A stretch of 64,000 nucleotides of DNA from Bacteroidales bacterium (GTDB taxonomy: Bacteria; Bacteroidota; Bacteroidia; Bacteroidales; VadinHA17): positions 24,714 to 88,713 of the forward strand of contig JAXHLX010000021.1 in NCBI GenBank assembly GCA_034521735.1, given 5' to 3'. Below are positions 17,473-43,737 of this stretch, one piece after another. The translations under genes and the position numbers were made by a program. Position 1 is the first letter of the stretch, and each line of letters opens with the position of its first letter. The notes beneath the pieces were generated by a model. That model was not told the origin of the DNA and did not search any database. It saw only the letters and a list, made by a program, of their open reading frames with translations.

Positions 17473-17549
17473 AGGTTAAATCTTATTTTTGCCATTACGG
17501 GCGCTGTGCCCTTTTATAACTTCAGGATGTAAATATATTGAAAATGATA

Positions 17550-35661: not shown

Positions 35662-37875
35662 CTATTTAAGATGCCTCTCAAGGTAATCAGTATATTGACT
35701 CATCAGCAGCATATAGGTTGTCATATCGGTTGCCAGCCCGTGTGCCCCCGGCGGGTATATCTTAAGATCAAAATCCTTACCCGCCATATTTAAGGCATTG
35801 ACCAGCTGAAAGGTATGCTGAGGGTGTACATTCTCATCCATCAGTGAATGGGCCAGCAGCAGGTGCCCCTGAAGGTTTGCCGCATGTGTTATTACCGCAC
35901 TCTGCTTATACCCTTCCGCATTATCATCCATCAGTCCCATATACCTCTCCGTAAGTATACAGTCGTAATACAGGTGGTCGGTTACCGGGGCGGCGGTAAT
36001 CGACACCTTGAAGACCCCCGGATGTGTCAGCATTGTGTAGCTGGACGTATAACCGCCGTAGCTGTGGCCACGTATAGCCATATTATCGCCGTCAATCCAG
36101 GGTTTGGACGCCATGTATCTGGCTGTCTCAACAAAATCATTCGACTCCCATTTGCCCAGCTGCCTGTGAACAATCTTTTCAAACTCGTAGCCATAGCCGC
36201 CATTACCCCTGTTATTCACAGATGCAATAAAGAAGCCCTGCTGCGCCAGCCACTGGTGCCAGCCGTTAGTTCCAAAGGTATTGAACACACCCTGTGATCC
36301 GGGACCTCCATATATGTCAAGAACCAGCGGGTATTCTTTGGTTTTGTCAAAATCAAGAGGTTTTATCAGATAGCCGTCCAGCTTCTGACCATCAGTTGTT
36401 ATAAAGCTGAACATCTCCCTGGGAGCATACTCATGAACATCAAGATACCTCAGCACTTCGCTGTTACCGGCCAGCTCCTCTATCTCTTCTCCTTCTGTGC
36501 TCATCAGCGAAACCACTGCAGGTGTATTAACATCCGAATAAGTGTCAATATAATATTTGCCATTATCCGAAACATTCACCCTGTGGTTACCTGCAGCTGT
36601 TGTAAGCCGCTTCTTCCTTTTACCCTTGAAATTTATGCTGTAAAGATTCTGTTCAGTGGGAGCCACCTCAGTAGATACATAATAGATAATTCCCTTATCC
36701 GTATCTATTGCTTCTATACCTTTCACCTCCCACTCGCCTTCCGTTACCTGGTTTATTATATTTCCGCTGTAATCGTAACGGTAGATATGTGCCCAGCCAT
36801 CACGCTCCGATATCCAGAAAAACTCCTGCAGATCTTCCGGGAAATAGATAAGGTGCAGGTTGCCGGCAAAGAAATCAAAAATGTCGATCCATGCATCTGA
36901 TTGCTCTTCCATCACCAGCTCACTGCTGCCACTGTTAACATCATAAAAGCGTATGGTCATCTTGCTCTGTATACGGTCCATCCACATAAGGGCAAGGGTA
37001 TTGGGCTTTGATGTCCAGTAGATACGGGGTATATAGCCTCCGTTTATATCTGTATCAAGCCATTTTTTCGTGTTATCCTCTGTATCTATCACTCCTATCT
37101 TAACCTGTGGCGGGTTATCTCCGACCTTTGGATACGGTACCTCCATATATTCCGGGTGGTGACCGGAAAAATCAGTAAGTTTATATATCGGCACCTCTGT
37201 TTCATCTGATTGCCAGTAGGCTATATACCTGCTGTCGCCCGACCATGACCATCCCTGTACCAGGCCAAACTCCTCCTCCTGGGCCCAGCCGAAACGGCCG
37301 TTATAAACCTGATCACGGGCATCGCTTGTAAACCTTTTATGCTCACCGCTTTCAAAGACAAAGCCGTAAAGATCACCCTCCTTGCCATAACCCAGCTTCT
37401 TGCCGTCAGGCGAGATCTCAGCACTGAAGGCCTGCTCAACTATCAGGTCAAGACTCTTGTCTTCAAGGGAATAGACATAATAGTCAGAGTTGCCTGAATA
37501 CCTCCAGATGGGATTGAAATTACACTGGAACAGGATACGGCTGAAATCAGTGGTCCATGCAAATGACACATACCTGAAAGGCTCTTCGCTGCCCGGGAAT
37601 TTAAGGTTTTCACTTGTAAAAACCATTTCTTCCTCCCCGGTATCCACCGTTCGTATCCATATCTCCTGTGCATTCTGGGAGTTACGGGTAAAGGAGAATC
37701 TATCTCCACCCTCAATCCATGTTATATTTGAAGGAGTCCCGCCAGTCCTAAGCTGCCCGGCAGAGGAGAGAGCCTCCTGCAGGCTTGAGTAAAGCTCTTT
37801 TTGCGCCTGTACTGATGCAGGTGCTGTCAGTAACAGCGACAATACAATAATGATAAGACCTTTAATGTTTTTCAT
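35662..37875 (-). CDS. dipeptidyl-peptidase IV-type S9 family peptidase, exported
   Basis: Signal peptide, a DPP-IV-like N-terminal propeller, and the triad context GHSYGGY, MDENVH and PGAHGL. Confidence 0.85.
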   Translation of the reverse strand: MKNIKGLIIIVLSLLLTAPASVQAQKELYSSLQEALSSAGQLRTGGTPSNITWIEGGDRFSFTRNSQNAQEIWIRTVDTGEEEMVFTSENLKFPGSEEPFRYVSFAWTTDFSRILFQCNFNPIWRYSGNSDYYVYSLEDKSLDLIVEQAFSAEISPDGKKLGYGKEGDLYGFVFESGEHKRFTSDARDQVYNGRFGWAQEEEFGLVQGWSWSGDSRYIAYWQSDETEVPIYKLTDFSGHHPEYMEVPYPKVGDNPPQVKIGVIDTEDNTKKWLDTDINGGYIPRIYWTSKPNTLALMWMDRIQSKMTIRFYDVNSGSSELVMEEQSDAWIDIFDFFAGNLHLIYFPEDLQEFFWISERDGWAHIYRYDYSGNIINQVTEGEWEVKGIEAIDTDKGIIYYVSTEVAPTEQNLYSINFKGKRKKRLTTAAGNHRVNVSDNGKYYIDTYSDVNTPAVVSLMSTEGEEIEELAGNSEVLRYLDVHEYAPREMFSFITTDGQKLDGYLIKPLDFDKTKEYPLVLDIYGGPGSQGVFNTFGTNGWHQWLAQQGFFIASVNNRGNGGYGYEFEKIVHRQLGKWESNDFVETARYMASKPWIDGDNMAIRGHSYGGYTSSYTMLTHPGVFKVSITAAPVTDHLYYDCILTERYMGLMDDNAEGYKQSAVITHAANLQGHLLLAHSLMDENVHPQHTFQLVNALNMAGKDFDLKIYPPGAHGLATDMTTYMLLMSQYTDYLERHLK

Positions 37876-37995
37876 GTGATTATATTTAATTTATTTCATA
37901 TGGCATGGAACCGCTCGTTCCTCGCTCTCACAAGAAAACTTTAAGCATTCTTGTTTGCGAAAATTTAATTCTTAAATTTTTAATAGACGTTTCAT
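37876..37995 (-). repeat. conserved leader module, copy C (abuts the ATG of the DPP-IV gene)
   Basis: Minus strand reads ATGAAACGTCTATTAAAAATTTAAGAATTAAATTTTCGCAAACAAGAATGCTTAAAGTTTTCTTGTGAGAGCGAGGAACGAGCGGTTCCATGCCATATGAAATAAATTAAATATAATCAC, then ATG. Same terminal boxes as the other copies, different core. Confidence 0.8.
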
Positions 37996-43629: not shown

Positions 43630-43737
43630 GTGATTATATTTTATTTATTTCATTGGACACATGCCTGTCTGCCGAACAGGCATGCCCGCCTGCAGGTTGG
43701 TTGTGAAATAATGGTAATTTTTTAATGGACGTTTCAT
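43630..43737 (-). repeat. conserved leader module, copy D (abuts the ATG of the lipoprotein gene)
   Basis: Minus strand reads ATGAAACGTCCATTAAAAAATTACCATTATTTCACAACCAACCTGCAGGCGGGCATGCCTGTTCGGCAGACAGGCATGTGTCCAATGAAATAAATAAAATATAATCAC, then ATG. Confidence 0.8.

Follow-up and report, generated by a model that had tools for sequence, protein, structure and literature searches.

What is the short structured sequence that stands directly before a DPP-IV/S9 peptidase gene in an uncultured Bacteroidales bacterium (VadinHA17), and what are the conserved boxes at its two ends? The sequence, copy C, occupies positions 37876-37995 on the minus strand of the window, by which we mean the whole 64,000-nucleotide (nt) stretch of contig JAXHLX010000021.1 (GenBank assembly GCA_034521735.1, positions 24,714 to 88,713) that was analysed. 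A first-pass annotation had described it as one of several leader copies, with terminal boxes as the functional or recognised parts and structured cores that can be replaced. We found that the boxes are the termini of a mobile element, and that the 5' box opens with five bases that were formerly the gene's own start. Copy C is probably a member of a superfamily of small, protein-less mobile elements in an uncultured Bacteroidales family (in records labelled Rikenellaceae), which dock at start codons and of which copy C is a mosaic of two subfamilies, canonical and C-type. G000 denotes the organism's own 3.17-Mb assembly, other G numbers denote related genomes, and L numbers denote individual loci or elements.

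Copy C is an insertion behind a native start codon

The DPP-IV gene is present in 16/16 genomes of the genus. Its closest orthologs, in G015 and G003 (89% and 88% amino-acid identity), have conserved upstream DNA and conserved flanks on both sides; their empty sites read ...ccaNatat(c/a)^ATGAAAAA straight into the gene (carets mark junctions), where G000 has exactly 120 extra bases. This clean 120-bp gap at orthologous starts identifies copy C as an insertion 3' of the native ATGAA, so that the locus consists of the native ATGAA (37995-37991), the insert ACGTCT...CAC ATGAA (37990-37871) and the remainder of the gene. The minus-strand sequence from 37995 to 37873 is ATGAAACGTCTATTAAAAATTTAAGAATTAAATTTTCGCAAACAAGAATGCTTAAAGTTTTCTTGTGAGAGCGAGGAACGAGCGGTTCCATGCCATATGAAATAAATTAAATATAATCAC-ATG, and its closing ATG is the start of the 737-amino-acid DPP-IV/S9 peptidase gene (35662-37875, minus strand), whose open reading frame (ORF) is intact. 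The features of the locus are as follows, where HP1, HP2 and HP3 are the three hairpins of the element family described below.

37991-37995, minus strand: native DPP-IV start ATGAA, the target pentanucleotide, severed from its gene and opening an upstream ORF (uORF); recognised from the empty sites of G003 and G015
37871-37990, minus strand: inserted element of 120 nt, ACGTCT...ATAATCAC+ATGAA, matching the clean 120-bp gap in orthologous loci; its last five bases are the rebuilt start
37977-37990, minus strand: canonical-type 5' terminus ACGTCTATTAAAAA, assigned by segment identity and by an ACGTC state confined to canonical-carrying genomes
37902-37976, minus strand: C-type core, 83-86% identical to G004/G009 elements (positions 1-102) and about 95% to L088
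37960-37980, minus strand: local hairpin AAAATTTAA-gaa-TTAAATTTT of the minimum-free-energy fold, in the 5' arm region of a degraded HP1
37930-37954, minus strand: local hairpin ACAAGAA-tgcttaaagtt-TTCTTGT of the minimum-free-energy fold, equivalent to the HP1 loop plus 3' arm in intact relatives
37907-37921, minus strand: hairpin HP2, GGAAC-gagcg-GTTCC, of the minimum-free-energy fold, kept in C-type elements
37871-37901, minus strand: canonical-type 3' terminus, in which an unpaired A/T-rich tract leads into the rebuilt ATGAA; its last 27 nt are canonical at 27/27 positions, and it stands in place of the C-type HP3
37972-37995, minus strand: uORF ATG AAA CGT CTA TTA AAA ATT TAA (MKRLLKI, then stop), opened by the native start codon
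38034-38041, minus strand: conserved TAGCTTTA box within ttttaatagctttata, upstream of the insert and present in most orthologous DPP-IV upstream regions
37975-37995, minus strand: 5' box ATGAAACGTCTATTAAAAATT, with three further window sites
37873-37899, minus strand: 3' box ATGAAATAAATTAAATATAATCAC+ATG, with three further window sites

A second, independent filled/empty pair concerns the same gene: in G008 (L040) an element of about 190 nt from another subfamily lies in the DPP-IV leader, behind an ATGAA that precedes the annotated start by 24 nt, and 4 nt past the conserved TAGCTTTA box, and the corresponding site in G009 (L042) is empty. By analogy with TAnnTTTG, the Bacteroidota -7 promoter consensus, this box is probably the native -7 promoter element; DPP-IV in G000 would still owe its transcription to the native promoter, with translation beginning at the rebuilt ATG.

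That copy C retains both boxes was borne out. The 5' box matches three other window sites with 2-3 mismatches (0 expected from shuffles) and the 3' box three others with one mismatch each (0 expected by chance); the other three window copies, also on the minus strand, stop exactly at the ATG of TMEM260/DUF2723-like, OmpA-family and DUF5128 lipoprotein genes. All four minus-strand copies lie within 26 kb (window 17370-43737), where chance would place about 0.16, given 20 copies in 3.17 Mb; local hopping may account for the cluster, but the cluster may also be what drew attention to this window.

Each element carries its own start codon

Every copy is preceded by ATGAA (rarely GTGAA), with upstream flanks that are otherwise unrelated; about 37 flanks yielded no extended target motif beyond (R)TGAA. 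In six G003 copies the pentamer is ATGAA at the 5' side and GTGAA at the 3' side, a mismatch which means that the 3' pentamer is borne by the element and that the flanking repeat is not a target-site duplication; in tandem arrays one RTGAA is common to the adjoining units. The element ends, ACGTCCATT... on the left and ...ATAATCAC RTGAA on the right, include no terminal inverted repeats, ACGTCC... and ...ATAATCAC not being inverted repeats of each other. The elements insert on the sense strand directly 3' of ATGAA, nearly always a gene's first five bases.

Because an element ends with its own RTGAA after an A/T-rich unstructured tract, the host ORF gains a new start and remains intact. The displaced old start opens a short uORF, which the element closes within 4-15 codons, and the A/T-rich 3' tail is unpaired in the predicted fold; Bacteroidota ribosomes favour an unpaired A/U-rich leader before the ATG in place of a Shine-Dalgarno sequence. 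The uORF of copy C reads as first described, with seven codons, and the accompanying argument against a conserved leader peptide also stands: across subfamilies the uORFs encode MKRPLKNHHYFTLRV, MKRLLKI or MKRT, each followed by a stop.

Subfamilies share constrained ends and a hairpin architecture

G000 holds about 13 near-identical 103-nt canonical copies besides variants and partial copies; its canonical-type copies number about 20. Elsewhere canonical matches number 34 in G003, five in G007 and four in G012, and most genomes of the genus have none; copies in G000 and G003 are 92-100% identical. Many canonical copies lie directly after an older ...AAAATTTTAAACNN^ATGAA end, and were therefore inserted at a start already rebuilt by an earlier element. 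C-type elements are longer, about 140 nt, and read ATGAA^ACGAACATGAAAATTTTAAGCATT...GAGAGCGAGGAACGAGCGGTTCCATGCCGTGCGAAAATTTTTTGC...GCAAAAAATTTTAAACGT ATGAA^. A degenerate core pattern located full C-type elements at at least six other gene starts (in uncultured Bacteroidales/Rikenellaceae metagenome-assembled genomes (MAGs) and JGI metagenomes), and within the taxonomic family BLAST with a C-type element found matches in 23 of 201 genomes, spread over 12 of 20 genera.

The architecture is constant across subfamilies. HP1, a long A/T-rich hairpin, begins about 5 nt inside the 5' junction; HP2 is short and G/C-richer; HP3, A/T-rich and ending about 8 nt before the 3' junction, is missing from canonical copies and from copy C. 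In HP1, 94% of alignment cells are paired versus 78% in shuffles and 37-57% in slid controls; double changes occur in five of eight pairs, and none of 500 shuffles attains the covariation score. HP1 has been preserved by compensatory changes.

An alignment of many copies, such as the first-pass annotation had proposed, gave a majority-base fraction of 0.93 at the 5' end (first 16 nt) and 0.90 at the 3' end (last 17 nt) versus 0.68 in the core, for 22 diverse elements from at least 10 genera. Ends more conserved than cores argue against a chance resemblance of AT-rich sequence, and the view that the ends are the recognised parts is upheld in that constraint is highest there; what would recognise them, however, is a proposed mobilisation machinery and not a gene regulator. 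The idea of replaceable cores likewise survives in part: the core of copy C has been swapped, but cores are not freely replaceable, because compensatory changes preserve their hairpins. Nor is the core of copy C completely different from that of copies A and B, as had been stated. It comes from a sister subfamily (about 95% identity to L088) and is distantly homologous to the A/B core, with the blocks CATTA.TTT, ATGATTA, GTRAG and GTTCCATG in common. Canonical and C-type elements are alignable along their full length, and the canonical form looks, from its sequence, like a C-type element minus AGCGAGGAACGAGCGG and minus HP3.

The three hairpins named at the outset are all present in the minimum-free-energy fold of copy C, whose z-scores are modest (-1.8 for RNA, -2.6 for DNA). 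Two of them constitute an alternative fold: intact relatives form one long hairpin from that stretch.

Other relatives are shorter or decayed. An older and much larger S-type family consists of elements of about 60 nt, ATGAA^(A/C)CG(A/G)(A/G)CATGAACTTAGCGAAGCGATCTCATGAACGAAGTGAATAAAATTTTAAACNN^ATGAA, whose 3' end plus RTGAA occurs at 83 sites in G000, about 66 of them directly before long ORFs; examples are C33:70815(-), C24:98443(-), C29:63200(+) and, in the window, about 17473-17530 upstream of copy A. Several canonical copies are seated at an ATGAA rebuilt by an S-type element. Minimal 23-nt derivatives, ACGAACATGAAAATTTTAAACNN^ATGAA, stand at gene starts in L131 (G004:C12), L132 (G004:C41), L130 (G050:C22) and L122 (G020:C33); they look like deletions between the direct repeats GAAAATTTTAA, close to the 5' end, and AAAATTTTAA, at the 3' end, and such deletions would leave the leader permanently rewritten. 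The DPP-IV gene of G012 (L046) begins ATGAAACGAACATTAACTTTTTTAATCAAAA... (MKRTLTFLIKIPVLLF), where G007 has MKNFRKILVLLF, which suggests that an element's 5' remnant, ACGAACATTAACTTTTTTAATCAAAA, was incorporated in frame into the N-terminus or signal peptide. Another remnant fused to coding sequence may be the gene start ATGAAACGTCCATTAAAACAT at G000 C5:83750-83770 (+), a 20/21 match to the canonical 5' box that continues as an ordinary ORF (MKRPLKHDHFTDRLAAALKK...).

Several canonical variants also contain a small G/C-rich palindrome, CCTGCCTGCC-G-GCAGGCAGG with variants, nested beside the GTTCC block: copy D (window 43630-43737), G000 C7:40260-40355 and C27:168357-168479, and near G000 C31 25811-25834 (in reverse-strand numbering, not plus-strand coordinates). 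The same palindrome is nested in a C-type element of another genus, L096 (G020:C33), and may be a second tiny palindromic insert.

Copy C combines canonical ends with a C-type core

Over its first 19 positions copy C matches the canonical form at 18/19 and the C-type at 14/19. The next 75 nt or so are about 95% identical to the C-type metagenome element L088, and the canonical form aligns there only with gaps. The last 27 nt are canonical at 27/27 positions, identical to the commonest present-day variant, and share nothing with the C-type 3' hairpin. The ACGTC(C/T)ATT state at the 5' end and the 3' tail AAATAAAT(A/T)AAATATAATCAC occur only in the four canonical-carrying genomes; all other subfamilies have ACGAAC-type 5' ends and AAAATTTTAAACNN 3' ends. 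Segment identities mark copy C as a mosaic: canonical for 14 nt at the 5' end and 27-31 nt at the 3' end, and C-type over the 75 nt between them.

This combination has a structural cost. Among the correctly registered rows of 18 aligned elements HP1 is worst in copy C, with two broken pairs and one wobble among eight outer pairs: canonical 5' bases opposite a C-type 3' arm damage the hairpin, and two small hairpins appear instead. The end swap also removed the C-type 3' hairpin. The mosaic would have arisen by recombination or template switching between subfamilies at the short shared motifs AAAAAT and GTTCCATG.

A stepwise history would look mosaic too, and copy C might instead be an evolutionary intermediate, a surviving member of the lineage ancestral to the canonical subfamily in which the ends had changed and the core was still C-type; the whole-length homology of the two subfamilies, and the resemblance of the canonical form to a C-type element without AGCGAGGAACGAGCGG and the 3' hairpin, fit such a history. 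We consider it unlikely. The 5' bases of copy C mismatch the C-type HP1 3' arm where canonical copies carry compensating changes, the signature of a chimera and not of a successful progenitor, and for this reason we prefer recombination or template switching. In addition, G000 and G003 have canonical copies in common at orthologous sites, but the DPP-IV copy is missing from G003, so that this insertion is younger than the canonical family, and the 3' box of copy C is identical at 27/27 positions to the commonest current variant.

Could the mosaic have been made by the assembler, with contig paths in a co-assembled metagenome bin switching between repeats? G000 is 91% complete with 7% contamination, and its strain-level contigs are duplicated. 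Against this, the exact blocks that canonical and C-type elements share are about 10 nt or shorter, insufficient for an assembler path switch, and the assembly contains no intact donor C-type copy (best other match 79%), which together make an assembly chimera unlikely; both flanks are, moreover, unique and syntenic with relatives. We regard an artefact as highly improbable. A search of G000 for a second hybrid or for the copy C core returned only two diverged C-type relics, C34:21805-21948 and C18:48803-48855. Long stretches of G000 contigs C13/C32, C16/C23 and C4/C35 occur in duplicate, with protein identity of at least 80%, as though the bin comprised two related strains, which affects copy counts; C13 and C32 were compared for presence/absence polymorphism, and the region did not align cleanly.

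Site preference and strand bias

Long-ORF starts carry 18 of 20 copies, and the few exceptions sit at an ATGAA a few bases upstream of a start. G000 has about 1433 intergenic ATGAA sites besides about 649 at gene starts, so that about 31% of copies would be expected at starts if all sites were equally viable. More broadly, an element-type 3' end stands directly before RTGAA at about 100 sites in G000, about 80 of them at long ORFs, in a genome in which 649 genes start with ATGAA. The sense strand of canonical-type copies lies on the G-rich strand (lagging-strand template) in 15 of 17 cases versus a baseline of 55% for ATGAA-start genes (p=0.004), a count in which four copies are clustered in one window. 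One speculation is that the sense (non-template) strand is targeted while single-stranded in transcribed translation-initiation regions.

Observations that weigh against a mobile family

Several results weigh against this account, the search for a mobilising enzyme foremost. Y1_Tnp (PF01797) has no match in the four canonical carriers G000, G003, G007 and G012, all of them MAGs; element presence is not associated with Y1 (15 of 23 carriers versus 130 of 201 genomes overall); the Y1 tnpA genes of the genus have no element-like ends beside them; and TnpB was found in none of 10 genomes. Small GIY-YIG genes in G004, G009, G013, G020, G044 and G050 lie within tRNA-gene duplications and are without element ends. 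All genomes used here are MAGs, in which repeats and insertion sequences may be incompletely assembled. Among the older S-type relatives there is no strand bias (16/27), and the preference for start codons is not readily accounted for by selection alone. No hybrid was found in the 16 genus genomes, GTDB species genomes or JGI metagenomes, where the search yielded pure C-type elements only; the hybrid has thus been seen once, and it may have formed in situ rather than moved as a hybrid. Finally, orthologous canonical copies are 95-96% identical versus 80-91% for their 290-nt flanks (G000 C2:305349 and L062; C28:152395 and L077 of G003), a conservation which may reflect host function, homogenisation among copies or re-insertion.

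The last observation bears on the reading that the first-pass annotation had favoured, in which the boxes serve a shared regulatory leader as functional RNA or DNA signals, read by a regulator, a small RNA or the ribosome, the cores can vary freely, and spread by insertion is secondary or the element has been co-opted. Ends more conserved than cores, orthologous copies better conserved than their flanks, a 3' box that yields an unpaired A/U-rich tract before the ATG, and a start-codon preference above a simple survival model would all suit such a leader. The framing nevertheless fares poorly at this locus: the two nearest species have this gene without the 120 bp, and the 5' box simply begins with five bases of each gene's former start. 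Near-identical copies, tandem arrays and 23-nt deletion remnants are typical of mobile DNA. The genes that carry canonical copies encode an HlyD adaptor, a hybrid histidine kinase, a sodium:solute symporter, a radical-SAM/SPASM enzyme, a 4'-phosphopantetheinyl transferase, an OAD gamma chain, a SpoU rRNA methylase and a TatD DNase, besides the four window genes (DPP-IV, OmpA and others); functionally unrelated and including cytoplasmic enzymes, with no common function or compartment, they form no shared regulon. Rfam, searched with the whole window at the gathering threshold and with the locus and five relatives at E<=5, returned only tRNAs and noise. With no orthologous conservation, heterogeneous carriers, no Rfam match and differing uORF peptides, a cis-regulatory RNA leader (riboswitch, attenuator or leader peptide) was rejected, and we give the broader regulatory reading very little credence.

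Comparison with known systems and a candidate mechanism

Among known mobile DNA the closest likeness is to IS200/IS605 insertion sequences and gene-less PATEs, which move by single-strand peel-and-paste via a Y1 HUH transposase. Passages of PMC11893778 (refs 50-51) and PMC10055086 cite IS200/IS605 and PATE transposition. Like these, the copy C family is without terminal inverted repeats or target-site duplication, inserts in one orientation directly 3' of a fixed tetra- or pentanucleotide that is retained at the left flank, has subterminal hairpins near both ends in C-type (HP1, HP3) and most subfamilies, shows a possible lagging-strand-template bias and comprises many short non-coding copies. 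Unlike them, it resides in carriers without Y1 or TnpB and has no statistical association with Y1; its right end repeats the target (RTGAA), re-creating both target and host start codon and permitting tandem arrays; about 90% of copies lie exactly on start codons; and the canonical subfamily and copy C have no 3' hairpin. With no Y1, no association, no matching ends and no TnpB, membership of IS200/IS605 is not established.

Correia/NEMIS elements of Neisseria, ERIC and RUP are short structured miniature inverted-repeat transposable elements (MITEs) co-transcribed with genes, and mosaic subfamilies are known among them. The present elements resemble these in being short, abundant, non-coding and structured, and in lying beside genes as part of the messenger RNA leader; those, however, are bounded by terminal inverted repeats and duplicate their target site (TA for Correia), and they neither keep to start codons nor rebuild them. 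A DDE-type MITE, which needs both inverted repeats and a duplication, was rejected since neither is present. Integron attC sites combine conserved end boxes with a variable structured core and are recognised as folded single-stranded DNA. The end boxes round a variable structured core recall them, and the first-pass annotation had argued along the same lines, but the two ends are not inverse complements, the context holds no integron integrase or cassette array, and the carriers are syntenic housekeeping genes.

The Ssn nuclease is accompanied by SRM hairpin repeats (Chenal et al. 2025, PMC11893778). A system of that kind was rejected, no small single-domain GIY-YIG gene being flanked by the repeat or lying within one; G000, G003, G007, G012 and G015 have only long, UvrC-type GIY-YIG proteins. 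The small GIY-YIG genes of the other genomes encode about 80-95 amino acids and stand in tandem partial tRNA-gene duplications, with the tRNA 5' part repeated before each copy and the ORF starting ATGAA (L133, G004:C101; L135/L146, G013:C1:3422754-3423291; L145; L149); they look like a separate, tRNA-targeting GIY-YIG mobile element. REP/BIME sequences with RAYT were rejected too: the carriers have no PF01797 match, and the elements sit at gene starts rather than in 3' intergenic positions.

Nor was an autonomous form found. In G020, G050 and G004, tracing 19 left-end matches over 2.5 kb led only to short elements, 23-nt remnants and solo ends by ordinary genes, and multi-copy ORFs in G000 included no high-copy transposase, only strain-duplicate contigs. 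A literature search for start-codon-rebuilding MITEs found nothing relevant.

The lack of inverted ends and duplication, the fixed left-flank pentanucleotide, the subterminal hairpins and the G-rich-strand bias lead us to infer a single-strand reaction: insertion would be of the IS200/IS605-like peel-and-paste type, carried out by a putative enzyme that would read the termini and the subterminal hairpin. The internal GTTCCATG(TG) block would form an inverted repeat with the terminal (CA)CATGAA, and in C-type elements TTCCATGCCGT would pair loosely with ACGTATGAA; such pairing recalls that between guide and cleavage site in IS608. More tentatively, and with doubts that we think should prevail for now, the superfamily may represent a new class of prokaryotic mobile elements that home to gene-start ATGAA, with machinery that is neither a Y1 transposase, nor TnpB-assisted, nor a small GIY-YIG nuclease.

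Meaning for the family

If copy C and its relatives are mobile, as we think probable, they illustrate how mobile DNA survives inside essential and housekeeping genes, by supplying a replacement for the start codon that it displaces. Copy C is a natural experiment, foreign ends on the core of another subfamily, and its mosaic structure supports the termini and one subterminal hairpin as the recognised parts under constraint. For annotation, the elements explain recurrent conserved "leaders", uORFs and odd N-termini, such as that of the G012 DPP-IV, in uncultured Bacteroidales. A mobilising enzyme of a new kind would amount to a site-specific single-strand DNA integrase whose target spans 5 nt, and a start-codon preference with a mechanistic basis would link transposition to transcription or translation start regions. 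Should the superfamily be a new class, the termini alone would specify mobilisation, so that cores could be exchanged between subfamilies, as in copy C, and the translation-initiation regions of a sizeable share of the family's genes would have been rewritten over time.

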